DNA from: Octopus vulgaris
Lineage: Eukaryota
Assembly: GCA_951406725.2 (NCBI GenBank)
Contig: OX597818.1
Coordinates: 5,456,001-5,520,000, forward strand
Length of the DNA stretch: 64,000 nt
Direction: 5' to 3'
Shown here: piece by piece, positions 9,553 to 62,680 of the stretch
Position numbering within the stretch: the stretch's first letter is position 1
Layout: each line of letters begins with the position of its first letter
Notes under the pieces: generated by a model
Seen by the model: the letters and a program-made list of their open reading frames with translations, nothing else
The model's database searches: none
What the model was told of the DNA's origin: nothing
Program-made: the position numbers and the translations under genes

Positions 9553-9594
<42 letters not shown>

Positions 9595-10431
9595 TTTCAA
9601 CAATTGAGGGTAAAATTAATTAATTAATTATTAATCAATTTCACCAAGTGTTCAGTATGTAAAGGGACCATTTAAGGCGAATTCAAATTATTACATTATA
9701 TAAAAGGGCTTAGTAAAATAAATTACTTTGCCACATACTGAACTCATTAGAAATAGCAGCTAAAAAAACTTTTTTAAAACTATTTCTAATACTTAAAGAA
9801 AATCTCTCTCATATAGTGCTTGCTCAATTCAACTCACGAAAGTATGGGGGTAAAGACATTAAAAAATCAAATGCAAAGGTTATTTGAGAACGTACGTTTC
9901 AAGATTAGTCAAACTCGACATTTCTATCATCAGCTCAGAACTCCTTGGTTTGGATTTGATAACACTGAAAGTGGGAGCATACCCTTTCGGCTTCCTATCG
10001 CTTCTGAAGATCTGCTCGAAACTAACAGTGTCAACATACCCAAAAAATGCAAGCGAAGAATTTCTGCTCTCCCCTTTCCACCAGCGTGGGTTAAAATCAG
10101 CAAACGCTAAGCTTTTTCGGTAAATCCGAAACATTAAATAGAGAGAGATGAATTATAATTTCAACAATTGAGGGTAAAATTAATTAATTAATTATTAATC
10201 AATTTCACCAAGTGTTCAGTATGTAAAGGGACCATTTAAGGCGAATTCAAATTATTACATTATATAAAAGGGCTTAGTAAAATAAATTACTTTGCCACAT
10301 ACTGAACTCATTAGAAATAGCAGCTAAAAAAACTTCTTTAAGTATTAGAAATAGTTTTTAAAAAGTTTTTTTAGCTGCTATTTCTAATGAGTTCAGTATG
10401 TGGCAAAGTAATTTATTTTACTAAGCCCTTT

Positions 10432-10439
<8 letters not shown>
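9595..10439 (-). mobile_element. ORF-less HHR element, copy B (564-bp unit, ~1.3 tandem copies plus inverted segment)
   Basis: 177-bp direct repeats 9595-9771 and 10159-10335; 10334-10439 is the reverse complement of ~9695-9800; homologous to copy A; (TA)n on both sides. Confidence 0.85.
9885..9937 (-). ncRNA. Type I hammerhead ribozyme, canonical core
   Basis: Minus strand TGAG-CTGATGA-TAGAAATGTC[gagttt]GACTAATCTT-GAAAC-GTAC-GTT^CTCA. Confidence 0.8.
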
Positions 10440-10463
<24 letters not shown>

Positions 10464-15362: not shown

Positions 15363-15728
15363 TTTCATACTCACAGACGATGAATCTATCCATGATTAAT
15401 CCACAATAAGGTGGGTATAATGTCCTGCAATATGATAAGATACTTGTCACACCTCTGTTCATTTCACAAAACTGCTATGTTAGAAATTTTAAAGGCTGAA
15501 GGATACTGGGATAACTGAGAGTTATCCCAGTATGCTCTTTGTGGGCGGTTTTTCTTTTTTCTTTTTCTTTTCTTTGCTCCACAAAATTCCTTCAGCCTTT
15601 AAAATTTCTAACATAGCAGTTTTGTGAAATGAACAGAGGTGTGACAAGTATCTTATCATATAGCAGGAAATTATACCCACCTTATTGTGGATTAATCATG
15701 GATAGATTCATCGTCTGTGAGTATGAAA
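15363..15728. repeat. Near-perfect 141-bp inverted repeat with structured spacer
   Basis: Arms 15363-15503 and 15588-15728, 2 mismatches; perfect 14-bp hairpin 15503-15533 at the spacer edge. Confidence 0.95.
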
Positions 15729-16671: not shown

Positions 16672-17455
16672 TACTAGAAATAGCAGCCAAAAGTCTGCTA
16701 TTTCTTTTTTCTACAAAATATGTCCATAATTAATGGAAGACTGTTTGATTTCACTATTTTTTCTTCTTTTTGCCTATGTGAGTTACAAATATTGTTAAGA
16801 AATAGCAGTCTTTTGGCTGCTATTTCAAAAATTCTCGGCATGTGGTCAAGCAACTTGTTGCTAAACCCTTAATTATTGTTATAATTATATATAAAAAAAA
16901 ACAACTTTTTGTATAAGTTTTTACTGAATATGATTCTTTTCCATACCGAAAACTATTTGGTAAAGTTTGTTAATTTATTAAATTAATAATTTTTTACCCT
17001 ATATCTGTAATGATCATTTCAATCCACGATCACAAAACTGCGGATCTCTTTCTACGGTACTATCTTGTGAGGTACATTGTAAACTTGGAGGGAAATACGA
17101 ATTCACTCGTCTATATAAATGTGGATATGCTGATTAACTTTTGTATGTTCTGATGGCGCTTGGTCAGAAAACAAGTGGTAAGTTTTCCAAGCATTTTCAG
17201 ATTTATAATTCTCGAAATATTATGTTGATGACGGAAATGAATATTTATAATTCTAATCCAGAAACGCATCCATAATTAATCGAAAACTGTTTGATTTCAT
17301 TATTTTTCTTCTTTTTGCCTATGTGAGATAAAAATATTGTTATCTGTGGAGACATATTTTGTCGAAAAAAGAAATAGCAGTCTTTTGGCTGCTGTTCGTT
17401 AAATTTTCGGTACATGGTTAAGCAACTTGTTGCTAAACCCTTAATTATTGTTATA
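16672..17455 (+). mobile_element. ORF-less HHR element, copy C (~546-570 bp unit, older)
   Basis: Diverged direct repeats ~16722-16885 and ~17270-17455; short 5' inversion 16677-16706; shares TGCTAAACCCTTAAT, AAATAG..CTATTT and GGTAAA..TTTACC elements with copies A and B. Confidence 0.8.
17219..17276 (+). ncRNA. Type I HHR motif, decayed (U3.G8)
   Basis: ATTATG-TTGATGA-CGGA..TCCA-GAAAC-GC-ATC^CATAAT; 6-bp stem I. Confidence 0.65.
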
Positions 17456-18286: not shown

Positions 18287-18679
18287 TTATGTATATATAT
18301 ATATATATGGAAAATAGGACAAGATAGAAATTGCTAAAACAATTTATTCATGAAACAACACACAAATGCACACGCACACAAACGCACACACACACACACA
18401 CTTATATATATGAGTATATATTGTGTCTGGAGATTTTATTAGTAAATTTTTTTCTAAATATTCGTAGCTTTTGAAACTTGTCAATGGATGTTGACTGTCC
18501 GTATTTGGGGCAGCGTTAATTCTTTGTGCGCATGTGTGTGCGTCAATTTGCATGAGTGCTTGTGTATGCACGTAGTATGTATTACGTGTGCATGAATGTA
18601 TGTATGTGTGTATGTCTAGTCGTGCGATTTGTTGTTGGGATTATAGAAGACAGAGTCAAGGGCGCTACCGGAGTTACTA

Positions 18680-19340
18680 TTTCGTAATTGTTATTGTTAC
18701 GGTTGCCGGCGTTGTTGCTGCTGGTGTTGTGTTCATTGTTGAGGTTGTTTTTCTTACTGTTGTTGTTGTGGGTGTTGTTGGTGTTGAAGCTGGTGGTGGT
18801 GATGGTGTTGGTGATGTTGTGGTTATCATTGTTGTTATTGTTGTTGTTTTGATTTCATATGTTTGTGTTGTTGCTATAGTTGCTTGTGTGGGAGATGTGG
18901 TTATTACCGCTATTGTTGCTGTTGTTTTGGTTTCGTATATTTGTGTTGTTGATTTGGTTTCGTATGTAAGTATTGTTGTTGTTTTATTGTCCATCTTATT
19001 TTTAAGAAACATTTCTCAATCTCAGAGAGACAATCAATTTTTCTGACCTTATATGTATCGAACTTCGGAGGTAACCCTAAGGCATGCATATCATCCGCAT
19101 CTAGTTGTACTGCACCGTATTTGTTGCTGTTGTTGTTAGTGGTGGTATTGTTTTCTGGTGCCCTGTCATCGAAGAAGTCTGCTGGTAAATTACATTTCAA
19201 CATGAATATCACGTCGATATTGTTTGGGTACCTGTGTTGATTCTTACCATGCTGAGATCGGTGTTTTTGCTGTTTCATCCACTTGAGTTTGTTGTTGAAG
19301 TGTTTGTTACAGGCATGCTTTATCCGGAAGTTTTCTTGTT
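18680..19340 (-). pseudogene. PLE N-terminal ORF fragment with (CAA)-rich low-complexity region
   Basis: DMHALGLPPKF..LSEIEKCFLKIRW resembles the L.LGPKF..IE....LRW N-terminal motif of PLE ORFs. Confidence 0.5.
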
Positions 19341-19375
19341 GGATGAATGATGTCTGTGTGTGTGTGTATGAATAT

Positions 19376-19597
19376 AGGCACAGGCGTGGATGTGTGGTAA
19401 AAAGCTTGCTTTCCTACCACATGATTCGGGGTTCAGTTAAACTGAGTGGCACCTTGGGCAAGCGTCTTCTACTATAGCCTCGGGCCAACCAAAGCCTTGT
19501 GAGTGGATTTGGTAGACAGAAACTGAAAGAAGCACGTCGTATATATATATACATCCTGCATGGCCGATGTTAAATGAATAAAACGGCTAAAAGGAGA

Positions 19598-19629
<32 letters not shown>

Positions 19630-19640
19630 CTGCGTGTGTC

Positions 19641-19675
<35 letters not shown>

Positions 19676-22240: not shown

Positions 22241-23699
22241 TTTCTAAGCTAATGCTGATTGTAAAATCTGTATATTAAACTTCCCTGTCAATCAGAGATT
22301 CCATCTACTTATTTTTTATCGACGAAATTTGTAATATTACTAATTTGCAACAGCAGATATAGAGAAACAGGTAGACTAAAATGAAATTAAATGAGCTTCG
22401 TTACTGAAAACTATAGTGGTGATGATGGTGGTGGTGATGATGTGCTGATAGTGAAAAGCACTTTTATACCGAACTAAATCTATAATATTATTCCTCTACC
22501 TCTTCGTTCACACTTAACGCTTAAGTTTGTTAGAGAGGAGGAAGAGGTGAAGTGGGACAGAAGAGGGAATGTGAAAGTGAGTGAGAAAGCAGATAGCCAG
22601 CTGATGCATTAAAGTAAAATAACATAGCAAAATAAAAATAAAATGCAAATCATACTTTCTTTCTTAAATAGATTTTCCTAATTTTTTTCGTTCTGTGGAA
22701 TTTCAAAGGGTCCCACTAGTAAACATTAATTTGTCAGCCCTGATAGAAAATGTGCTACGGCTCTATCAGATTAAATAGTCCTTGCGTTAGACAAGTCCTC
22801 TTCAGTATTAACTGATCTTTTGTACATGATGTGCAACCATAGAGGAACGGTAGCTTCAAATCAAAGATGAAGTGTGACCTTTGTACGAAAACCCGAGAAT
22901 TCTGATGTAAGGCAGTAATAGTCTCAACAAAAATCTGAACCGTTAACGCCTTGTATGCACACGGACAATATCCTTATGCAGATAAAATCCTCCTTAAATT
23001 TAGTTCTGGTTCAGGGGAAAAAAACGTCGGTTTTTGAAATGTTTAATTGATGAGTTTTATTGAGATATATATTTTAATATGTGTGGGTGCGTGTCTATAT
23101 TTGATTATATGCATGTAGGTATAAGTGCATATGTATACGTGAATGTGTGTGTGCATGTGTGCGTGTGTGCATTTCTTTGTGTGTGTGTGTGTGTGTGTGT
23201 GTATTTGTGTGCGTTCGTGCGTGTATGTGTATATGTATATGTATATGTGTGTCTATACATATTTGTATCTTTAGGTAAAATTCTAAACATATATAAACAG
23301 GTGAGATAAAGCATTCATGATGAATCGAACGGACATAATATTTGCTGAAAATGCTCGCTAGATTCGTTATCATCAAGGTTTTATGTCAAATGTTTTAATT
23401 TGTTTAAAATTTTACCTGGTAATGGTGGATTGTATGCTGTGATGTAATCTATGAATACATCAATTCGTAAATTCAAACCCCATTTTACTCTACGAGCCTT
23501 GAGTCGGATCTGACACTTACACATCTACAATATCCTACCAACCCATGATACTTTCATGATTACTTATTTCACTGTTAACGTAGGTTAACGTAAAAGTAAC
23601 TAGTATTTATCACGTCCTGTATGTAAATATCCATGGATTCAAACGACTCCTATAACTAACATCATTTTACAAGCATCTTCCCCTGCCAATTTAACATCG

Positions 23700-33029: not shown

Positions 33030-34860
33030 TAGTAACAGAAAAGAGGAATTTTTGATTATCCCCACGTGGTGAGTTGTAATGTATATAAGAAATTAGAAGG
33101 AAAATACGCACACTTTCATAGTTTTAATGTAATTTTTAATATATCGACCGATTTCGCTATCGCTATTCATGATATTATGTTTTACTTATTTGAATATATA
33201 TATTTTTCTTAAGATGGATTTTTGTCCATGTTGTGTGTGATGAAATTCACAAGTAGATAAATAAAGAGAGGTAATTGGTTGTCGTTATTATTGTTATTGT
33301 TTTGGGTAAGGGAGATAAATGTTCAGCTTTCGGTAACGGGTGGGGATTATATATGTGTACAGACAGAGAGAAGTTTCAAAAACCTTGTTTAGTAGGGAAT
33401 TTATGTACAGTGATGTAATCGTGAATTGAAATATGTAAAAAGATAAAAGTTGGTTATGCGGGCATATTAAGACGTGTTTTGTATTTTTCAATGAAAAAAG
33501 TTTCTTATTTAAACGTTCTAGTTGAGAGATTGCGTCTTTGCACTGGTAGAAAGGGAAGACTATGAAATTTGGTTTGATGTTACCTGCAAATTTTCTATAT
33601 GTTCACTGAGAGGAATTTGTCTGTATTGCGGGAAACTGATTTGCTCTTTATGTAGAGTGCTTCTCTTTCTTAAGGTCATACTCGTTTGTCCAATATAGTG
33701 GTATTCGCAGCCCGAGCAGGTTATTACATAAATTAGTTTCTCAGAGGCACAAGTGAAACTAGTTTTAATTGTGGACCTCTGTCCTTGTTTGAAAAGGAAA
33801 TCCGAGCCTTCAAGCAGGTTGGGGCAGGTTCCACAGTTTGGGCGTCCACATTTTTCAACTGCTGGTTTCGTGGCTGTTTTGTAAAGCTTCGCATTTGTAA
33901 GTAGTCTCTTTAGCGATTTGTCTTGTTTTTTTGCTTTTGATGAGTTTGTGTGTTTTCAGAATGTCGTTCATTTTTGGATCTCTAGTTAGTAAAAGAAGAG
34001 TTTGCACAATAGTGTCAAATGTCTCACTCTTTCTGGGGTTGTGTGTTGATATAAATAGTAATGATTTGAGTTGAGGTGTGGTGTTATGTTTTGTTATTCT
34101 TAGTTTTTTGTGTCTAATTGTTTGGCACATTTAATTCCCTCGTCGATAATACAGAGTGGATATTGTCTTTCAATAAGTTTTGTTTTGATGTCTTGAAGAC
34201 GAAGGTCCCGAGTTGTTCTATCAGACACTATTGTGCAAATACGTTTTGCCAAATTGAAAGGGATGTTTATTTTGACGTGGCTCGAGTGGCATGCGTTAAA
34301 GAGAAGATATTGTTTTGAATGAGTTGGTTTATAATAGATTTCAGTTATGATTTCATTGTTAACTTTTTTTATCATAATGTCTAAAAATGGGAGTTGTTCT
34401 TTGTTATATCCCATTGTGAATTGAATGTTACTATTTATGTCATTTAGTGTTGATTTGAAATCCAAAAGTTTGTCGATGTTCTCCTTCCAGATGATAAAGC
34501 AGTCATCTAGGTATCTCTTCCAATTTTCTTTTATGTAGAGGTAAAATGGGTAACCATATTTCTGAAGTGATATTTCATATAAGGTGAATTAAAAATAACC
34601 CATTATTAGATTCGCAAGAACAGGAACTGCTTTCGTCCCCATCGCAATTCCACATTTGTGACGATAGTTTGTGTCGTCAAATAGGAAATAATTGTTCTGA
34701 AGTATAAATTTTAAGGATTCAATAATGAAGATCTGGTTTATGCGCGGGAGACTTTCGGGGTACTTTTCCAACCAGAATGTAATTGCTTTTATTCCATAGC
34801 CATGGGGGATGTTGGTGTAAAGATTGATAACATCGAGGGTAACCAATATTGCCTCTTAAT
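33030..34860 (-). mobile_element. Penelope-like element (Neptune-like), 5' truncated, disrupted ORF, with 3' UTR
   Basis: LDVINLYTNIP, GIAMGT..ANLIMGY, WKRYLDDCF, LPFLDI, YYKPT, CGRPNCGTC, FTCASEKLIY..TCSGC..YIGQT. Confidence 0.92.
33141..33175 (-). ncRNA. Minimal type I HHR, A3-U8 variant, in 3' UTR of the PLE
   Basis: Minus strand ATATC-ATGAATA-GC[gata]GC-GAAAT-CG-GTC^GATAT. Confidence 0.7.
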
Positions 34861-37160: not shown

Positions 37161-38520
37161 TTATTCGTTTGTTGTAGATGCGTTCAGAAGGGGCCTTATT
37201 TTGTAATAAAGAGAGTTTCTTTACTTATTCGTTGGCTCGAGGTTGTATCGTCCCTGAATTGGTAGAGGGGGAAAATTCCGAAGCTTGGAGTTTTGTTGTT
37301 GGCGCAAATATCTATTTGTTGGCTGAATGCTATTTTTCTGTTTTGGGGAATTTTTATCTGGGATCTGTGCAGAGCCATTCTTTTACGTAAACTATCGTTT
37401 GTTTGGCCTATGTATTGCTCTTGACAACCCAAGCAGGTTAGTGTGTATATCAGGTTCTCCGAAGCACATGTGAAGTTGCTTTTCACTGTGAACCGTTGTC
37501 CCTGTTTGAAGGAGAACTCTGATCCCTCAATTAGATAATCGCATATCCCACAATTGGGTCTTTCACATTTTTTACTGTCGGCTTATGTGTTGATGAACGT
37601 ATTCAAGCTTGTGTTAGGAGACTTTTCATAGATTTGGGCTGTCTCTTGCTTTTTATGATCGTGTGTGTTTGGAGGATTAAGTTCATTCTGTGGTCTTTTT
37701 GTAGCAGGGGTGTGTTTTGGAGGATGGCGTCGAAGGCTTCATTGTTGAGAGGGTTGTGTGTGGAGATGTATGGTAAGGCTTTTGGTCGTAAATTTTTCTT
37801 TAATTTGGGATGTCTGAGTTCCTGGAAGTTGAGTTGAATGCATATGTCAATTAGTGAAGGTGGGTAGTTCCTGGTGGTGAGGGTATCTTTTAGTTCATGT
37901 AGTCGTGTGTCTCTAGTGTTTGCATTAGAAACTATAGTAATATTCTTTTTGCTAGGTAGAAGGGGATATTCATTCTGGTGTGTCTGGGGTGGCATGAATT
38001 GAAAGGAAGATATTGCTTAGAATCCGTAGGCTTGTAGTATATATCTGTTTCTATTACATTATTAGATTTCTTAATGAGGATGTCGAGGAAGGGGAGTTGT
38101 TGCTGGCTATATTCCATCGTGAATTATTATTATTATTCTCCCCCCTCTTCTTCTTAACTTCATCACTAATGCTCTTTAGTATAACACCTACGCAAATTCT
38201 ATAAACAAACCTTTTAATAGAAATATTTTCATGAATTGGACAGCAGGAACTGCTAGCCACGACTGACCAACGACAATGAAGGCAAACCCAAATTCTTCCT
38301 CCCTTTCTCCCCCTCCTCCTTCTCCTCCTCCTTCTTTCAGTTTCTCTATATTTTCATGCCAAAGAATGAAACAGTCATCTAGGTATCTCTTCCAGTTGTT
38401 TTCTATGTAGAGGGAGAAAGGGCTGCCATATCTTTCTAGAACCTTACGATACAGACTGATTTCTAGATATCCCATGACTAGGTTGGCAAAGGAGGGGCCA
38501 TTCGCGTACCCATCGCAGTC
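37161..38520 (-). pseudogene. Penelope-like element (Neptune-like), disrupted, with unrelated insert ~38125-38330
   Basis: GTAMGT, ANLVMGY, WKRYLDDCF, LPFLDI, YYKPTD, FTCASENLIYTLTCLGCQEQYIGQT. Confidence 0.92.
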
Positions 38521-40121: not shown

Positions 40122-42226
40122 ACATCCTTTTTGTCTCGGGAGACAATGGAGTTGCGCATAAAATAGTCTAGTCCGGCTTATACATTTCATGTCCTGATAC
40201 ATTTCCTGCTGTGGCTGTGTAGTCCTATCCTGGACAAACACTCTCTCTGGCAGGTACCGCAAATGTAGCGAAGACTGTTCCTGGCTGGTTGTAATGTCAT
40301 AGTTTCTTGTTGACGTCTTTTCTTGTCTTTCCATTTCTCCTCTCTCTGTCACTCCTTTGTATTCCGTCTTTTACGGTACGTCGCCAATCTCCACGGTTGC
40401 TGGCAATTGCTTTTCAACTGCTAATATTGATATTGCAGGCCTTCATATCCCTTTTGTAAACATCCTTGTAACGTAAGAACGGTCTGCCCACAGACCTAGT
40501 ACCCCTAGCAAGCTCTCCGTAGAGTATGTCCTTGGGAATTCTGCCATCTTTCATACGGCTAACATGACCAAGCCATCTCATACGTCTTTGTGTGAAGAGT
40601 GCAAACATGCTTGGTATTCCTGCTTGCTTGAGGACATCTTTGTTGGGGATATGATTCTGCCATTTGATGCGGAGGATTTTCCGGAGGCAGCGCAGGTGAA
40701 AGATGTTTAGGCGACGCTCTTGGCGTGTGTATAGCGTCCAGGTCTCACTTCCATACAGTAGAGTGCTAAGTACACATGCCTGGTAGATCTTCATTTTCGT
40801 GGTCTTGGTCAGCTTATTGTTGTCCCATGCCCGTTTGGAGAGTTGGGCCATCGCAGCAGCTGCCTTGCCAATGCGTATATTGAGCTCAGCGTCAAGGGAT
40901 AGGTTGTAGGTGACGGTAGAGCCAAGATAGGTAAACATCTCCACCTCCTGTAATCTGTGGTCTCCAATGTGGTTGGGATGTCCGATGTAGCCTGACCCAT
41001 GATGTTGGTCTTCTTAAGGCCGATAGCTAAGCCAAAGAAGTCATTTACATGCTTGCTCAAAACAGTTAATGGGCCTTTGGAGGGCTTCTTCTGTGTGTGA
41101 TACCAGAGCGGCATCATCAGCAAATAGCATATCATTGATCAGGACGTTTCTGATTTTGGTCTTGGCACGCAGGCGTGAGACATTGAACAGTTTCCCGTCA
41201 CTTCTACTGTGCAGAAACACTCCATCATCTGATGTCTGAAAGGCATGTGAGAGCAAGAGCGAGAAGAAAATGCCAAATAATGTAGGAGCGAGGACACAAC
41301 CTTGCTTTACCCCGTTTATTATTTCGAAGGCGGCTGATGTTGAACCATTGTGCTGTATGGTGCCTTGCATATCATCATGGAAAGACTTGATGATCCTCAG
41401 CAGCTTTGGTGGACATCCGATTTTTTGGAGCAGGATGAAGTGGCTTTTTCTACTTACCGAGTCAAAGGCCTTTGTTAGATCAATGAAGGCCATATATATT
41501 GGCATTTTCTGCTCTCTGGATTCTCCTGAATTTGGCGTATGGAGAATATCATATCAATAGTTGATCTGCTTCTTCTAAAGCCACACTGCGATTCCGGATA
41601 GATTCCAGAAGCAAGTTGTTGTAGCCTGGCCAGGATAGCGCGAGCAAAGGTCTTTCCAACAGTGCTTAGAAGAGATATTCCACGGTAATTGTTACAAACA
41701 CCACGGTCACCTTTGTTTTTGTAAAGCGTAATGATGTTAGCATCCCGCATATCCTGAGGGACTGTACCCTCTTCCCAGCCCTGACACAGAAGCTCATGAA
41801 GGTGCCGAAGCAGGATGGTGTTTTTGCCGGCTTTGATTATCTCTGAGGGGATGCCGTCTTTTCCCGGAGCCTTGTTTCTTGCTAGGGAGTCAATAGCCTT
41901 GGTGCGCTCTGCTATAGATGGCGGACTGTCAAGTTCGCACATGACTGGCAAGATCTTGACACTCTCGATTGCAGCCTCAGCTACTGCAGTCTCCCGTGAA
42001 TAGAGATCCTGGTAGTGCTCCACCCATCTATCCAGTTGCTTACTTTGATCCCTGATGAGATCTCCAGTAGTTGATTTCAGAGGGGCTGACTTGGTTGCGG
42101 ATGGACCGAGGGCTTTCTTCAAACCGGCATACATCCAAAAGGTGTCATCCCTGTTAGCAGCTGACTGGATACTCTGACAGATTTCCTGCCAATACCTATT
42201 TGCACAGTGTCTGGCTGTCAGTTGAG

Positions 42227-42228
<2 letters not shown>
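40117..42228 (-). mobile_element. RTE-clade LINE, 5' truncated, frameshifted RT
   Basis: KAPGKDGIP, NYRGISLLS, ESQCGFR, FIDLTKAFD, GVKQGCVLAP, FADD, FTYLGS, WLGHV; 3' end CCATTGTCTCCCGAGACA; (TA)n on both sides. Confidence 0.95.
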
Positions 42229-42311
<83 letters not shown>

Positions 42312-42332
42312 CATATACATATATATAAATGT

Positions 42333-42595
42333 GGAGGCGCAATGGACGGCGGTTAGGGTAGCGGACTCGCGGTCGGAGGATCACGGTTTCGATTCTCAGA
42401 CCGAATGTTGTGTGTGTTTGTTGAGCGAAAACACCTAAATGCTCCACGAGACTCAGGCAGAGGGTGGGGGTGACACAACTTTCTTTCACTCTCGATTCCT
42501 GTTTCTTGAGTAACGCTGCGATGGACTGGTGGCCCGTCCAGCTGGGGGGAACACATACGCCACAAAAACCGGCTAGGCTTGAAAAGGGCGCGAAT
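42333..42595 (+). mobile_element. tRNA-derived SINE
   Basis: GGAGGCGCAATGG..GGTTAGGG, B-box-like TTTCGATTC; related minus-strand copy 54389-54531. Confidence 0.8.
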
Positions 42596-54676: not shown

Positions 54677-54931
54677 GGTATTTATAAAATCTTAAAGCTT
54701 ACGGCGATCACCGTACAATGACCAAGGAAAATAGTCTAATAAAGAGGCATATAAGCCCTCGACAGAAAAAAAAGGATTTTCTATCCGCGTGGGGCTCAAA
54801 CACACATCCCTTTGTTAACGCGGCTAAGTATGTTACCTTTACACCTGCGAACTATATTAGTTCGTATTTTATTTACATTATTTACATTATTTAAATTCGA
54901 CGGATATTTGTCCTCATCTTGTTTGTTTTTA

Positions 54932-54975
54932 ACACAATGTTTCGGCTGATATATCCTCCAGCCTTCTTTGGGTGT
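54932..54975 (-). ncRNA. Minimal HHR, core decayed, stem II intact
   Basis: Minus strand ACAC-CCAAAGA-A-GGCTG..CAGCC-GAAAC-ATT-GTGT. Confidence 0.55.
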
Positions 54976-55016
54976 CTTGGGGATATTTCAAAACCCATTC
55001 CTAAGGTATTTTTCGA

Positions 55017-55086
<70 letters not shown>

Positions 55087-55305
55087 GTTATTGTTCAGGT
55101 CACTGCTTGGAAACGAACTCGGAATCTTGGAGTTAGTAGCCTGTGCTCTTAATCACTACGCCATATGTCCGTGGGCATATGGCGAGATTCCGAGTTCGAT
55201 TCCAAGTAGTGAACTGAACAATAACAACAACAACAACAACAATAATAATAATAACATCAAAAACTACATTAGGAATGATAACCCAAGTTCGAAATTTTCC
55301 CAAGT

Positions 55306-55347
55306 CACCTGAAGAAGACTGAAGGGTATATCAACCGAAACGTTGTG
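55306..55347 (+). ncRNA. Minimal HHR, core intact, stem II decayed
   Basis: CAC-CTGAAGA-A-GACTG..CAACC-GAAAC-GTT^GTG. Confidence 0.7.
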
Positions 55348-56773
55348 TTAACAATAAACAAGATGAGAACAAATATCCGTCGAATGTAAATAATGTAAAT
55401 AATTTACATAATTCTTCATCTCTTAAATATAGAACTGTAGTTCGTATTTGTTTATGTAAACAAACATTCTATGTGCTGTCGGTGCGAATGGCTTTGTTAT
55501 ACGGTGTCGTGTTTTACAATACTGTAAATAATAATAATGATTATTTATATAAGCCTGGCAATCACCGTGCAATGACTGAGGGAATTTGTCTAATATATAA
55601 ATACCATTATTATTATTTACAGGATTGTAAATCACGGCACCTTATAACAAAACCATTCGTAGCGAAAGCACATACAAAGTTTGTTTACATAAAGCAAATA
55701 CGAACTAATATATTTCTTAAATTTGAACGAAAGAAGCAAGCTAATTCGCTGGTGTGACTGTAACACACATAGTTACGTTAACAAAGAGAAGTGGGTTCGA
55801 GTCCCTCGTGGATAGAAAAGCCTTCGTCTCTGTCGAGGGCTTATATACCTCTTTATTAGACTACTTTCCTTAGTCATTACACCGTGATACTTTAAGCATA
55901 TATAAATGACATTTTTATTATTTACAGGATTGTAAAACAGGACGACGTATTACAAAACCATTCACATACATATAACGTGATTCGTTCATATATTTATGCT
56001 CTTGTATTTTCTTTCACATTTTTCTCTGCTAGAGCTATTGCAATATATTTCTATTATTCCATTGCGTGCCATTTGAAATGCTTAGCAATGCGTCTGGAAA
56101 ATATCGTCCCATATTTTGTATACTGTATTCTTGTTCCATCTGACGTAGTGAGACTTTTCAAAATTTGAAGAAATCGCAAATTAAATTCTAATATAAAACA
56201 TTATTCAGCTTACTGACACATAAATGTGTGTTTGGATTTTTTACAAATAATTTTCTTTCCATTTTTATTCGCAATTCATTCTTTTGAAGGCATTTATTTT
56301 CGAATAAAGACGCTTTCTCCTTGCCAAGAAAGATTCCTTCCAATTTTTTCATAATACAATCATCAGTATCTAAATAATTTGAAGTTGAATAGGAAAAGAG
56401 AATACAGAAATAAACTATAGCCTGAAGTTACATTTCTCTATAGCATTGGGGCTTATTATCTTACTATTTTTTTCTTTTACGCAATATTCACGGTGTTCCT
56501 TATTTCTAATACCATGCTCGTGTCACTGTCGAAAAGAAAACCTTAATGATATTATCATTTTGCTTCAGGGTTTGAAAACTGAGATAGCCAGCTAATCTAC
56601 CTTCAGGGAATTTTTGAAGTTGAAGCAGGTTGACTATTATTGACACAGAGCGCTATGACACAAAATAAAAGAAAAAGAAAAAGAAACCACTTCTATTCAG
56701 ATGTCGTTTATTTTATATTGATTTCAGAGTTTCAGTTTCAGCTGGTAAATATTTCCCGCAGCTAGTAGACACT

Positions 56774-56925: not shown

Positions 56926-59364
56926 CTAAAGTGTAATAAATATGATACAGAAATAACGCGGAACAAGAGATAATGGAATATTTGATTAGGGATCATACAT
57001 ACGATATAAAAATGATAATACATATTAACAAGGTGGCATACATAATGCCGTACTCTGGATTATCATGATGGTGTTATTAATAATTTCACACATAGCAGTT
57101 AATGGCATAATTTATTGAACTTCAGGACAAGCAAATTCACCTAACTGTAGGATTGAACGAATGCCAAATGTATACTACGGCACTTGTGTCTGATATATTC
57201 TGTAATCATGATTTATATCTAGACGAACCGACTTAAATATTTTCAATAACAGGCGTCATTTTGAAATCATGAAATTCTAGCATATATTTCTGAAGTAACA
57301 TATAACATTCATAAATATGCACTTTAACATGTAAAGACTCTTTGCAAATCCATGTTTCAAAATACACAAATATATATATTTTCATTTTGGTTGATTTACT
57401 TTTGATCCGGAAGTGAACTCTAATTCAAATTTGTTCCAAAGGCGTTCCCGTTTTAACTAGTTTCTTATCCGTTGAAAATTCAAGAGGGCTTTGCTTTCTG
57501 ATAAACAGGTATGTTGTGTTATGCATTTCCATTGCAAGTTCGCATTAGTAAAAACATATTGCAGTGTTCCTTTAAATGTAGTTGCTCTTCTTCCTCGGCA
57601 CCTTCTGCATCGTCATTTACAAAGCATTGCTCAAATCGGCAAACTTTGTTAAATCATCATACCGCTAATGGTCACGTAGAAAGTCTGTGCGTATATGAGA
57701 TATTTGCTGATTTCATTTAACGTTTCAGAACAATGCAAAGGTGGTAAAAAGGCTAGGTGATGATGTAATGACGTGGTAATACCGGATCATATAGATAAAA
57801 TCATATTACTTTGGCTGCCAGATAAGAATGAGGATTCAAAGCTGTCTGAAACGATGAGAATTTAACTTATATTTCATGTGGAGTCACCAAACCAGCTTCA
57901 CCCTGCATACAAGATAATAAATGTACCAAAAGATATACTAGATACATTCTTTAAGAAACGTAGATCGACAATGGTGATCAGCATACAGCTGTACCACCGA
58001 TGTACGCCTGAAAACGGCGGCAAGACACCAGCAGTTAACGTTTGATGACATGAGGTGACTTTAGACAATCTGCGAGTAAGTCTTTATGCAAGCTCTCGAA
58101 ATAGACAACAAACGATCGTTACGGTAGCTCTGAAAATAAGTTATGTAAATTACAGCAATAATGTCAGTAACATAGTTGCCATTGTTCTTGTAAACGGTCC
58201 CAATGATAGTGGGTTGGATAAAGTCAAATGATATGAAACTGATACACTTTCAGCAATGAAAGAGTTTAGACAGAATCTTTGGATGTGATATTCACCAATG
58301 CTACACAATAGTGGTTGGTATGGTTCTGTATCCGGGGAATGGGCAAACAAATTAAAGCTCATCATTTGGCATGATCTCTACCTGCAAGAAAATCAAATCT
58401 ATTGTGACTTCGTGTATCGCCTTCTCACAGTGGAAAACGACTAAATTCAGTTGTCCAGTACATCAGTGAAGCACAGCAGGGAACAAATTATCATATCACT
58501 TCTAATATTCCCTACAGATATGGTCCGAAACAGATCTGTGAAGACGAAAACAGAAGAAATCTAATGGATTTGACGCCTGTAAAAAATTCAATAGAAAGTG
58601 TCACTAAGAATCAAATTGTAAATGATCTAACCAAATTTGAGAACAGCTTTGGCCCAATAAGAATCTCTTACAACATTCTGTTGCCGGAGTTTAAAGCATG
58701 AGTTACGTTACATTGTAATCGAGATTCTCTAAATGTTTGCAAAATCACAAGATTGGCTATAAAATATAATTGACTGTATTCCCTTGAAGTAACAATAGTG
58801 TCTGGAAAATTTCTATATGACAGTTACGTCATTACCAGAATACTACTGAAATCAACTAGTTTGCGATTCTACTTTCAAATATTTCCAACCTTTCTTTAAC
58901 AAAAGTTTACTATAACCATTCGTTAATATCAAACTTAAAACGAATTTAGCAAATCTAACGTTTCCACTTGGTTAGATTTGCATAGGTACTTCAAGAGTTG
59001 GGAAACTTCATTGATTTTTTATCTAAGTACGAAACTGCAAAATTAACATTATTGTTAATCTCGTAATCTATAGAATGGTGAGGTGAACAAGTATAATTTG
59101 ATATAAAATTCAATTTAACTTCAATATACAGAGTTCCTAATTACTTAGTTATATTGTTTGTAATACATGCGGAATTATTATTGCATTGTTTGTCAATAAA
59201 TTTGCCAGGATTCACTTAATTCCTCGCCTGTCGATATGTAATCTACAGATCAATTAAAGCTAATATAAAAAGCAAGGGTAGATATAAGAAGCAAGAGCAG
59301 ATATAAGTTCGCTTCAGCTCGCAATATATAGAAAAATATGACAACTCGTCACTGATATTCCAGC

Positions 59365-59730
59365 AAGCAAAATAGCCAGCTAAGGACATATCTATAAGAA
59401 ATGAAATTCATAGCTATACTGAGAAGTAATATTTATCGACAAATGGCCGTTCCGTAGAAACCGACATTTTACAGTTCTTAACCCCAGGAGAGCGAACTAC
59501 TGATATCTCTACCGGACGGCTGCCACCACTGACGATGAGAACAAATAGCTCGAAACCTGGCAGACTGGTGGTCACGTCGTCGTCACTAGAAGATGGTAGG
59601 TGTTTGCTCCCTTGCAATATATATTGGGTTCCTAAGGAACAGCCATGTTGTAGTGGTGATAAACTTTACTTCTCAGTTATAGTTACTACTTTCATCTCTT
59701 ATAGAAATTTTCGAAGTAGCTACTTTGCTT
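59365..59730 (+). other. 366-nt imperfect fold-back (rod) with apical hammerhead
   Basis: Nested complementary blocks 59365-76/59719-30, 59391-406/59690-705, 59418-29/59666-77, 59443-62/59627-46, 59490-97/59602-09. Confidence 0.85.
59515..59581 (+). ncRNA. Extended type I HHR with bulged stem I, extra U after A9 and GAC triplet
   Basis: GACGGC-T-GCCACCA-CTGACGA-T-GAG[aacaaatag]CTC-GAAAC-CTGGCA-GAC^TGGTGGT-CAC-GTCGTC. Confidence 0.75.
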
Positions 59731-59740
59731 ATTATTATTA

Positions 59741-59820
<80 letters not shown>

Positions 59821-59930
59821 ATTATTATTATCGTTGTTGTTGTTGTTGTTATCATTATTATTATTGAGTGAATGAACAGTGCATGCCATCAAAGTGACAC
59901 TGGGGTAAAATATACGAAGCCCAGTATGCC

Positions 59931-60000
<70 letters not shown>
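59729..60000. repeat. (ATT)n microsatellite tracts with a ~65-bp repeat fragment between
   Basis: Direct reading. Confidence 0.95.
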
Positions 60001-60003
<3 letters not shown>

Positions 60004-62680
60004 TAGTTTTATTTTTATAGCGTGCTTTCACTTCACTACCGAGCGCAGCTCTGTGTGCCTTGGGTATGTGCTGTGATTTGTTGTGATGCTCTGATGGTTA
60101 TTGTATGGAAAGTGTTCTGAGTAGGATGTGTGCAGTGCCTAGTAGTGCAATTTTCTGTATGTTATATGTGTTTGTAAGTCCGGGTGTTTTTGTTATGTAT
60201 TTGTCTGAATATTTTTTTATCATGCCTAATGCACCTACTAAGATAGGAATTGTTTCTGTTTTTAGATTCCACATTCTGGTTACCTCTATTTCCAGGTCTT
60301 TGTATTTTGAAAGTTTCTCCATTTATTTTAGAGACACGTTGTCATCCGCTGGTATTGATACATCAGTTAGGAAGAATTTTTTTCCTTCATGATCTCTGAC
60401 AACTATATCTGGTCTGTTGGCCTTATTTTCTCTATCTGTGTGTATCGGCATATCCCAGAGTATGGTTGCTTTCTCGTTTTCTGTGACCTTTTCTGGTGTG
60501 TGCCTATACCTTTTTTTTCTGTTGTTATTACATAATGTTGGCATAGCTTGCAGTGTATGTAGGTTCCAACTCTGTCATGTATGTGAATATATTCCTTCTT
60601 AGCCAGGACTGGGCAGCCAGAGATAATATGATTTATTGTTTCTTGTCCATCTCCACATATTCTTCAGTTACTCGTTATATTTCTTTTCATTACATGTTTT
60701 TGTTAATTTCTGGTGGGGAGGATTTGGTCTTGTGCTGCAATTAAAAATCCCTCTGTCTCTGCTTTGAGTCCTGAGCTTCTCAACCATTGCTAGGATTTTT
60801 CTTTGTCTATTTCTTTTGCGTTTAGTTTAGTCCAGTATTTACCATGAAGGGGCTTTTCTTGCCATCGTTTTATCATGGTTCGTTGCTGTTCTATTTTTAG
60901 TTTGGATTGCATTTCTTTTATAGCTTTTGTTGTTTCTTTATCTTCTTCTTCTTCTTCTTCTTCTTCTTCTTCTTCTTCTTCTTCTTCTTCTTCTTCTTCT
61001 TCTTCTTCTTCTTCTTCTTCTTCTTCTTCTTCATATTTATTAGGTGGTTTGATTTCTTGTTTGTATTTGTCAGCTTCCTTAAATACTGAGAACAGTTTTT
61101 TGTTTTGCTCGTGTTTTGCCGCTATTTGTATCAGTTTTCCTTCCTTCTGAAGTAGATATTTTTGCAGTCCAATGGTAGTTATTTTATAGTAGTTTTCCAG
61201 CTGTATAAGGCCTCTACCACCTTCTATACGTTGTATATATAGTCTTTCTATGTCAGATTTTGGGTGATGCATCCTAGACCCTGTCATTATTTTTCTTGTT
61301 TTCCTATCTATTTTGGTCAGTTCATTTAGTGTCCAGTTAATGTTATTTTAGCTGTAACTTATAACTAGGACGGCTAAAGTGTTAATACCTATTGTTATTA
61401 GCATTGAGCTCTGTTTTTAGTATTGATCTAACTCGTCTATAATATTCTTTTTTATTTTCTCTTTCATTTGTGTGTGTTGTGTCTTATCTAGTTCATGGAT
61501 TCCTAAGTATTTGTAAGTTTGGCTTTGGTCTAATTCTTTTATTTCATTGGTTTTATCTAGTGTGATGTTGGTACTCTTAACTAGTTTTCCTCTTTTCATG
61601 GTTACTTTGGCGCAATTTTCTAATCCAAATTTCATATCTATTTCTTTGGTAAATCCATGAACTGTCTTTAATAGTGTTTCCAGCTGTTTGTCATTTGCAG
61701 CGTATAGTTTTAGATCATCCATATATAAAAGGTGGCTGATCGTTTTGCCGTAACACTTATATCCGCATCCAGTTCTATTTAGCATATCAGATAGAGGTGA
61801 CAGTGCCAAGCAGAAAAGGAGTGGAGAGAGCGTGTCTCCCTGGAATATTCCTCTTCTAATGGGGATGGCTTTGGTTTTCATGAGTCCCTTTTTTGTTTGG
61901 AGTTGTAGCATTCTTTGCCATTTATTCATAGAGTGCCCTATGAATTTTATAATTGTTGGTGCTACTTTGTTAATGGCTAGTGTTTCGAGGATCCATGTGT
62001 GGGAGATGCTATCAAACGCCTTTTTGTAGTCGATCCAGGCCATACTGAGGCCTTTCTTCTTTCTGTGGCTGTCTTCAGTTACGGCTTTATTAATCATTAG
62101 TTGATCCTTACAGCCATATGAGCCTTTGCGGCATCCTTTCTGCTCTTCTGGAAACAGGTTGTTTTCGTCCAGGTGTTTGTTCAACCTTCGCGATATCACT
62201 GCAGTAAATGCCTTGTACATTGTAGGAAGACAGGTTATTGGTCTGTAGTCTTCTGGTTTTGCTGTCTCATTTGATTTGGGAATTAAGATGGTTTTCCCCT
62301 TCGTGAGCCATTCAGGCATTGTCTCTGGCTCTGCTAGTATGTTGTTAAAGTTTTCAGCCAGCTTTTTGTGCATTCCTGTTAGATATTTCAACCAGAAGTT
62401 GGGGATCTTGTTATGCCCAGGTGCCTTCCAGTTGCTTAGTTTTTGCAGTGCCTGGGTGACCTCTTCAGTTGTTATGGGGGTCCAAAGTTGCTCAGATGCT
62501 GAGTTTGTTATTTTGATACTCCTTTTGTTTTTGCTTGTTCGTTCGCCGACCATATTTCTCTCCAGAATTCTTCCACTTCTTCTGCCGTTGGTGCTGCAGT
62601 GATTTCTATTTTATTTTTGCCAAGTTCTTGGTAGAACTTTTTGTGGTTGGAGTTGAACTTTTTGTTGTGTTCAAAGAAGA
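60001..62680 (-). mobile_element. R4/Dong-type non-LTR retrotransposon (RT + CCHC + restriction-like endonuclease), 5' truncated, disrupted
   Basis: WKAPG, YRPITCL, EQKGC, WIDYKKAFDS, GIFQGDTLSPLLF, HLLYMDDLKLY, YKYLG, ILWD..ANRPDIVV, KLSKYKDL; (ATT)n on both sides. Confidence 0.93.

Follow-up and report, generated by a model that had tools for sequence, protein, structure and literature searches.

An old fold-back copy of a hammerhead-bearing repeat in Octopus vulgaris, probably inserted with the help of Penelope-like elements

Positions 59365-59730 of a 64-kb stretch of Octopus vulgaris DNA (OX597818.1, 5,456,001-5,520,000; the window, whose positions are used throughout) fold into a rod with a hammerhead ribozyme at its tip, which raises the question of whether this genome carries a copy of a viroid-like RNA or whether the rod was built in DNA. 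A sequence-only reading had proposed a self-cleaving rod circle opened opposite the ribozyme or, alternatively, a fold-back element that had captured a ribozyme. We favor, at a probability of about 0.6, an old, dead, head-to-head insertion of a non-coding retrozyme-like element mobilised by Penelope-like elements (PLEs), with the rod formed by an inverted copy of the element's own end.

The hammerhead and the rod at this locus

The ribozyme core (CUGACGA, an extra U, GAG/CUC, GAAA and GAC) was confirmed as that of a true extended type I hammerhead, with CUGANGA and GAAA boxes, three helices and an open stem I (Table 1). The predicted fold of this copy contains stem I and a stem II of 3 bp but no stem III (probability 0.0). 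A strict hammerhead descriptor matched once on the two strands of the window, at this locus, and never in 40 shuffled 64-kb strands; on the minus strand neither strict nor relaxed descriptors gave a match. Rfam returned nothing at the gathering threshold over the whole window, and over 59200-59760 its five matches up to E 10 were chance matches, none of them a ribozyme, so that this hammerhead was left unscored. Loop II holds CAAAUA, as does that of the Schistosoma hammerhead, and the stem I loop has a U as its first residue (U59572) and a pyrimidine at its penultimate position, 59521; such loop motifs of Schistosoma and other hammerheads are given in the accessible part of PMC2632901. The sequence motifs for a putative contact between the stem I bulge and loop II, as in extended type I hammerheads, are thus present. 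A9, the extra U and G10.1 spell AUG at the start of stem II, in a reading frame that is not kept in the family.

The viroid-sized, 366-nt rod was recovered on both strands, with predicted energies of -129.9 kcal/mol (z -9.0) on the plus strand and -138.3 kcal/mol (z -11.2) on the minus strand, and none of 100 shuffles was as stable on either. The nested complementary blocks were verified at 11/12, 15/16, 12/12, 8/8 (seven Watson-Crick pairs and one G-U) and 17/20 (59443-59462/59627-59646), as was the bulged distal stem I, which has 6+2+6 pairs in the predicted fold. The fold-back centre lies 5 nt from the core midpoint, at the apex as had been claimed, and the rod is richer in GC than the upstream flank (0.41 versus 0.29).

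The arms pair over 119 Watson-Crick, 7 G-U, 10 A-C and 17 other columns. Between the outer arms 79 of 97 ungapped columns matched, with 2 G-U and 7 A-C (75% over 105 nt, E 3e-12 by BLAST), and between the inner arms 25 of 35, with 4 G-U and 2 A-C, a level reached by 73 of 3000 shuffles. No bias toward G-U was found in the rod arms, either overall (7 G-U versus 10 A-C) or in the outer arms (2 versus 7). Folding the plus strand as a circle gave -122.8 kcal/mol, so that closing the ends costs 7 kcal/mol relative to the linear form. Each half of the rod in this decayed copy folded like shuffled sequence (z -0.01 and -0.27). No second copy of the element was found within the 64-kb window.

The statement that the rod has no convincing ORF needs qualification: a frame of 100 codons without a stop spans it (6 of 1000 shuffles), although this frame looks copy-specific. 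From an AUG at 59535, 65 codons stay open as far as the end of the element (about 1% of shuffles). A coding relic was rejected: none of 11 longer-protein candidates was related, three HMMER matches were sums of 6-10-bit pieces in repetitive proteins, the best match among 113 PLE-like proteins had E 0.14, and a one-base deletion near 59677 in most other copies would put TAG in frame.

Table 1. Parts of the element and its ribozyme, in window positions
Feature	Position	Strand	Remarks
Leftmost family segment ("leader")	59306-59338		diverged direct repeat of right inner arm; TATA-like run at 59325
26-nt extension, candidate PLE "tail"	59339-59364	-	on left (inverted) arm only
Left outer arm	59365-59462	-	inverted copy of element 3' end (59627-59730)
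Left inner arm	59463-59522		partly complementary to 59572-59626; outer end unpaired
Extended stem I	59515-59581	+	distal internal loop/bulge (U59572; pyrimidine 59521) placed for loop II contact
Type I hammerhead	59523-59571	+	core, stems, descriptor, fold; differs from most copies at 59540 and 59564
Stem I	59523-59528/59566-59571	+	6/6 Watson-Crick
CUGACGA core	59529-59535	+
Extra U after A9	59536	+
Stem II and loop II	59537-59551	+	GAG/CUC; pair probability 0.85-0.86
GAAA	59552-59555	+
GAC triplet	59563-59565	+
Predicted cleavage site	59565/59566	+
Stem III		+	2 bp with 6-nt loop; pairs only in T59564 copies
Right inner arm, 3' of ribozyme	59572-59626	+	TATA-like run at 59618; depth about 25-48x flank
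Right outer arm, element 3' end, most abundant part	59627-59730	+	copies stop at 59712 or 59730-59733
(TTA)n microsatellite, probable insertion target	59729-59865		abuts 3' end; TRF period 3, 45.7 copies

The repeat family in other contigs

Rod-derived words were present in 20 of the 24 listed runs (10 studies, five organism labels). Four of the 24 runs (X1, X7, X16 and X21) were aligned to 58800-59742 at 80% likeness, and runs with shares below 0.2 were left out of use, X16 excepted. In the three DNA runs 585, 559 and 594 contigs aligned, which marks the locus as an old and decayed member of a multi-copy repeat. The flank stood at single-contig depth and the element far above it: from 19, 50 and 52 in the flank, depth rose to 1087, 2638 and 3932 in the bin 59312-59343. 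Relative to the flank it was 53-76 at 59312, 1-2 at 59472, 22-40 over the core, 39-48 at 59600, 160-173 at 59632 and 353-741 at 59696, and the right outer arm ranged over 160-741 between 59632 and 59727; contig depth is not copy number, and the gradient is inflated, since left arms are also counted on the right arm and inner parts that have diverged escape alignment at 80% likeness. Run X21, perhaps RNA, gave 10 contigs on parts of the element and none over the core, which says nothing on expression.

The same insertion was found in organisms C and D, so that this copy predates their split: one contig of D covers the flank, with 34 differences in 467 nt, and reaches 59382, and another spans 59391-59742 with 31 differences. 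Run X1 may itself derive from the sample that gave the window. Other contigs were colinear with the locus from 59306 or 59318 to 59430-59436, and the element therefore begins at about 59306, some 60 nt to the left of the rod, rather than at 59365. Its first segment, 59306-59338, resembles 59572-59626 to a degree that 8 of 3000 shuffles attained. On the minus strand this segment follows the tail, and some other copies have it on the upstream side of a hammerhead. The left inner arm showed no significant homology to the reverse of 59285-59364 (384 of 3000 shuffles). A search for TSDs of at least 6 nt around the element found none, and simple patterns detected no Pol III A or B box within it.

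Several smaller features lie at and beyond the ends. The TATA-like run at 59325 is followed, 24 nt away start to start, by an Inr-like TCACT at 59349, both facing the rod; a similar arrangement is described for the rotifer pLTR in the available text of PMC3846280, and in AT-rich DNA such motifs are common enough to occur by chance. At the left junction, 59263-59307 forms a 19-nt tandem of 2.4 copies, and the D contig is about 46 bases longer at 59262-59266. A 66-nt non-repetitive piece at 59866-59931, between two (ATT)n runs, is possibly the 3' end of another retroposon.

The cleavage triplet of this copy is GAC, which is not of the form NUH. A T at 59564, which yields GUC, was carried by 9, 9 and 8 contigs of the three DNA runs with 78-89% of the depth there (149.6 of 168.4, 436.9 of 531.5 and 530.4 of 684.2), and in run X1 the contig of this locus itself had exactly the remaining depth (18.8). 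Among other copies that cover the position, most thus read GUC, not GAC, a possibility that the sequence-only reading had raised. In addition, a C at 59540, which gives a 4-bp stem II, was present in 18, 21 and 27 contigs. As judged from these contigs, the ribozyme is a feature of the repeat family and not only of this locus, because other copies mostly have GUC and a 4-bp stem II, and loop II contains CAAAUA. The GUC copies would be expected to self-cleave and this GAC copy to do so little; it is old and probably inert. About half or fewer of the core-bearing contigs reach 59564, and a second hammerhead variant that diverges after GAAA may therefore exist.

Contig ends and joints outlined the remainder of the family. 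Loose ends clustered behind 59712 (22, 27 and 21 contigs), 59730 and 59732 in the three DNA runs, and the consensus behind 59730 (50, 50 and 48 contigs, agreement 0.51-0.58) resembles, by eye, the reverse complement of 59339-59364; in contig data, left arms mapped backwards and right arms that continue look the same. Loose ends before 59627, in 21 contigs of X1 and 15 of X16, showed that a left-type inner arm sequence recurs joined to the outer arm. A further contig in X1 and in X7 covers 59511-59521, and 59472-59503 was covered by 1-2 contigs per run. Arm-to-arm joints fell at different positions (59437-59578, 59429-59684 and 59627/59678), and no same-strand joint from 59730 to 59365 occurred among 15 of the 46 joints.

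Opposite-strand joints from 59305/59306 to 59523/59527 were present in two X7 and four X16 contigs. Record 25 of X7 matches the 59306/59527 joint in depth (56.1) and, read backwards, gives 3' end, tail, leader and hammerhead, which hints at a head-to-tail junction with a unit of about 290 nt if its spacing resembles this locus. The locus has one hammerhead, and it is this single X7 contig that links a 3' end to a following hammerhead; none was shown to contain two hammerheads. At one locus seen in X1 and X7 (joint 59338-59523), a leader motif lies 5 letters from stem I, suggesting a short tandem unit, and one X16 contig (joint 59705-59414) looks like a tail-to-tail fold-back at the 3' end.

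Neither a relative of an RT plus GIY-YIG ORF in or beside the element nor an autonomous PLE carrying element sequence was found. The window itself is repeat-rich animal DNA with microsatellites, in which 2 of the 9 frames scanned contained RVT_1. Two decayed RT/GIY-YIG (Penelope-like) ORF pieces, 34103-34588 and 37846-38457 (both minus strand), are 45-70% alike; the 113 relatives of the former mostly have RT and/or GIY-YIG domains, and those that are named are mostly molluscan. Broken non-LTR retrotransposon frames lie at 60790-62610 and 40414-42380 (both minus strand; RVT_1 E 1.6e-30 and 8.5e-16), the former 1 kb from the element and with a (TCT)n run in frame.

Origin of the rod

The preferred reading draws on the family as a whole, which is multi-copy and has a conserved GUC hammerhead, 3'-weighted coverage and alternative 3' ends, and on further marks of PLE-type insertion: the one-sided 26-nt extension, the adjacent inverted copy, the microsatellite neighbor and the lack of a TSD. 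The depth gradient and the loose ends at 59712 and 59730-59733 point to 5'-truncation, within the limits of depth given above. The same reading is favored by the varied positions of the arm-to-arm joints, the head-to-tail junction hinted at in X7, the absence of wobble bias and of a minus-strand ribozyme, the shuffle-like folding of each half, the analogous fold-backs described below, and the PLE-type sequences at 54869-55411 and 34103-34588. According to the available text of Craig et al. (10.1101/2021.04.23.441226), PLE insertions are 5'-truncated, favor microsatellites, and often have an inverted copy next to them and, at one of their ends, a tail of 30-40 bp. In the anole PLE, as presented in part of PMC11167929 (Frangieh et al.), cleavage occurs at ATT, two RT start sites are separated by the tail, uncleaved RNA serves as substrate and the ORF begins at stem II. 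Palindromes at inverted PLE junctions have been interpreted as self-priming (PMC3846280, Arkhipova et al., in the portion available).

We infer a PLE helper and a self-priming step, which could act as follows. A Penelope-like RT-endonuclease working in trans would nick an ATT-rich target, and reverse transcription of uncleaved element RNA would start at a fixed 3' position, some 150-165 nt beyond the cut, with cDNA synthesis usually ending early, before the hammerhead. The long stem I would be the element's own palindrome at the hammerhead; a new strand that reached it could prime on the complementary arm, its own or a sister template's, and the 3' part would be synthesised a second time, inverted and with the tail. 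The product would be arranged head to head, its arms in register with stem I and the ribozyme core forming the loop; priming on a stem I arm would thus bring the core to the apex, and no selection for a rod RNA would be needed. The rod's outer ~100 bp would be a DNA-level insertion product, and its inner ~55 bp may extend stem I naturally. The ribozyme of active copies most likely cleaved multimeric transcripts to give monomers of about 290 nt, an estimate taken from one contig.

The main point against a simple snap-back is the left inner arm, a type of its own that is found repeatedly next to the outer arm. A single snap-back should have produced identical arms, which suggests that two subfamilies met head-to-head at stem I or that a two-armed ancestor was amplified. 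Other observations also count against the PLE reading: the arm-to-arm joints could be internal deletions of a rod; the tandem junction is drawn from one match in depth between a record and a joint; the left extension (~60 nt) exceeds the usual 30-40 bp tail; and analogous loci, described below, have minimal hammerheads with a palindromic stem III and no adjacent PLE ORF was found there.

The two-armed ancestor is the basis of another explanation, in which an ancient retrozyme fold-back became a master of about 380-425 nt and the rod itself was retroposed by PLE enzymes, its RNA having the hammerhead at one pole and being possibly transcribed from the motifs at 59325 and 59349. Both strands of such a rod end in the same 100 nt, so that it could be retroposed from either. 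We consider this possible, though rather unlikely. The left-type inner arm joins the outer arm at one fixed point in the X1 and X16 contigs counted above, leader, tail and outer arm are colinear in several other contigs, the additional X1 and X7 contigs extend into 59511-59521, microhomology fails to explain the arm junction (10 of 22 columns in the middle segment), and the TATA-like and Inr-like motifs point into the rod. However, among 15 of the 46 joints none links the left-type arm to the hammerhead, the left-type loose ends (median 89 and 128 nt) match nothing in the aligned region, the middle of the left inner arm is covered by just 1-2 contigs per run, the outer arms lack wobble bias, AT-rich DNA commonly contains TATA/Inr-like motifs, and a rod with a single ribozyme could release a circle only if rods stood in tandem. 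The bolder form of this explanation, a genome-encoded rod RNA of about 380-425 nt with a canonical hammerhead, competent as a monomer, at one pole and PLE-recognised ends on both strands, viroid-shaped circles released from tandem rods and hundreds-fold retroposition, seems to us unlikely. Were the rod the amplified unit, fold-back of a simpler retrozyme would have given rise to an animal retrozyme of viroid architecture, which would provide a concrete genomic route to rod-shaped ribozyme circles.

Two explanations closer to the original proposals fared less well. A fold-back DNA transposon or MITE with TIRs of about 100 bp, moved by cut-and-paste and with a hammerhead captured in a minority of copies, would agree with an outer arm some 9-18x deeper than the ribozyme, with two-armed contigs that have no aligned ribozyme between the arms (joint 59627/59678) and with arms that show no RNA-strand bias. 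We regard it as improbable: instead of fixed, symmetric TIRs with a TSD, the ends are heterogeneous and asymmetric (59712, 59730-59733 and the extension), no TSD was found, and the ribozyme is better formed in other copies, which a passenger of a DNA element would not need. With its core conserved among copies, the repeat is not an ordinary MITE, in line with the sequence-only reading; of the two proposals of that reading, the fold-back element that captured a ribozyme came nearer, but the order looks reversed, a ribozyme-bearing retroelement having acquired a fold-back.

Endogenisation of an infectious viroid-like rod RNA, opened opposite the ribozyme and later spread as a repeat, would account for the length of 366 nt, the rod (z -9.0) and a canonical hammerhead with tertiary-contact motifs at one pole, but we find it scarcely credible. 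The ribozyme is on one strand only, the arms are near-perfect inverted repeats without wobble bias, closing the ends costs energy, and viral and prokaryote collections contained no exact match to the family motif. The related proposal that 59365-59730 is a unit-length rod circle found no support either: family sequence continues 60 nt past the left end, the supposed opening point, no joint closes the circle among 15 of the 46, the two halves fold like shuffles, and the minus strand has no ribozyme.

Analogous fold-backs and known systems

A core-subtype pattern yielded 45 metagenome loci (L016-L060) from the 5 of 64 parts scanned (about 1700 stretches estimated), which share nothing with the element beyond the core. 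Among the 45 loci listed, 44 had U at the free position after A9, 34 began stem III with the palindrome of minimal PLE hammerheads, and 32 had a fold-back around the core; 10 of the other 13 have less than 150 nt of flank on one side. All 32 fold-backs were centred 5' of the core, at -8 to -342 nt, with four within 20 nt, and 24 ended 64-82 nt past it. This spread of centres places an apical ribozyme at one extreme of a range. The apical part of L024 and of L043, both of them rods, contains an intact ribozyme, and in L022 and L041, probably one locus, the fold-back turns inside the ribozyme. No PLE ORF was found next to the 45 loci, and tblastn of five RT-like frames of the window against L016-L060 gave no match. 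Abundant fold-backs of 200-430 nt with minimal hammerheads, probably host DNA, are exemplified by L054:590-1093, L038, L050 and L027, and some metagenome fold-back elements contain short tandem hammerhead units.

A loose core pattern matched 15 loci among viral contigs, where BLAST aligned nothing outside the core, and the family-specific core pattern had no exact match in viral or in prokaryote contigs. Four of the viral contigs (L003, L004, L010 and L015, at 501-536) share a well-formed hammerhead with a 6-bp stem II, GUC and an extra U after A9, unrelated to the element outside the core. Within the window, 54869-55411, 4 kb away, is a head-to-head PLE-type fold-back that contains (TTA)n and, by eye, a minimal hammerhead-like core per arm (the right one from 55309); an inverted pair (54707-54854/55742-55888) and another fold-back (55438-55707) flank it. 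At 9590-10442, direct and inverted copies (98-99% alike) of an AT-rich unit between (TA)n runs form a young tandem/inverted insertion, whose weak hammerhead-like cores at 9933 (minus) and 10004 (plus) failed the hammerhead descriptor. Further inverted-repeat pairs or fold-backs of 46-298 nt lie at 2243-2536, 15363-15728, 16679-17396, 18358-19649 and 23273-23417.

The hammerhead-bearing repeat family is apparently undescribed: titles and abstracts contained no account of it or of head-to-head retrozyme rods, Repbase and most subscription journals lying outside the scope of that search. Retrozymes derive from pLTRs, with many solo monomers, according to the accessible text of a preprint by Li et al. 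(10.64898/2026.07.22.740005); PLE mobilisation of animal retrozymes has been argued from co-occurrence and a frog phylogeny, and the same text states that no other organisms were examined in this respect. Here, a canonical retrozyme-type hammerhead stands in a repeat that bears physical marks of PLE insertion, in a mollusc, and its stem I junction offers a testable case for the proposed self-priming. The locus also gives reason for caution in mining viroid-like RNAs, as PLE chemistry can build rods of 250-430 nt with a hammerhead tip (L024, L043 and this locus).

The available parts of PMC7229834 and PMC7761336 describe non-LTR retrozymes as tandem repeats of 170-400 nt with canonical type I hammerheads that yield circles, with PLEs proposed as helpers. 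Like these metazoan elements (Cervera and de la Pena 2020, PMC7229834), the family is non-coding and multi-copy, has less than 50% GC and a canonical type I hammerhead, coexists with PLEs and has an inferred unit (~290 nt) within their size range. Unlike them, it has one hammerhead at the locus in an inverted rather than tandem arrangement, one contig hinting at head-to-tail copies; its halves are not highly self-paired in this decayed copy, it has the PLE-type extra nucleotide and a 6-nt loop III, and it is known from DNA contigs alone. The family appears to work like a PLE-mobilised retrozyme; strict membership would need tandem arrays and circles.

With EN+ PLE insertions that have inverted pLTRs, the element shares 5'-truncation polarity, a head-to-head inverted copy, a one-sided tail, alternative 3' ends, a microsatellite/ATT target, no clear TSD, a hammerhead 5' of the 3' end and an AUG at the stem II start. 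It differs from them in having no linked RT/GIY-YIG ORF, two inner arms of distinct recurrent types, canonical helices and loop II instead of a minimal palindromic stem III (loop III has 6 nt and is non-palindromic), and a 3' end that lies 165 nt beyond the cut, a greater distance than at the analogous loci. The contrast with PLE-type hammerheads that had been drawn at the outset stands for helix sizes and loop II, but not for the extra nucleotide between 9 and 10.1, which, together with the G10.1-C11.1 pair, is a published PLE-hammerhead trait (PMC4209133) that the element shares.

A ribozyme of close design is that of Schistosoma mansoni, which, in the available part of PMC2632901, likewise has a 6-bp stem I leading to a U-starting internal loop, a 4-bp stem II (as in the family) and a loop II with CAAAUA and a 3' A; the element departs from it in its 7-nt loop II, the extra U after A9, a 2-bp stem III with a 6-nt non-palindromic loop, and a purine rather than a pyrimidine last in loop 1. 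In size, rod-like predicted fold and a ribozyme at the pole the locus resembles hammerhead viroids and viroid-like rods. Unlike these, it is a chromosomal multi-copy repeat of one polarity, known from DNA contigs alone, and its hammerhead is of type I, whereas infectious circles typically have type III (PMC7761336, in the part available).
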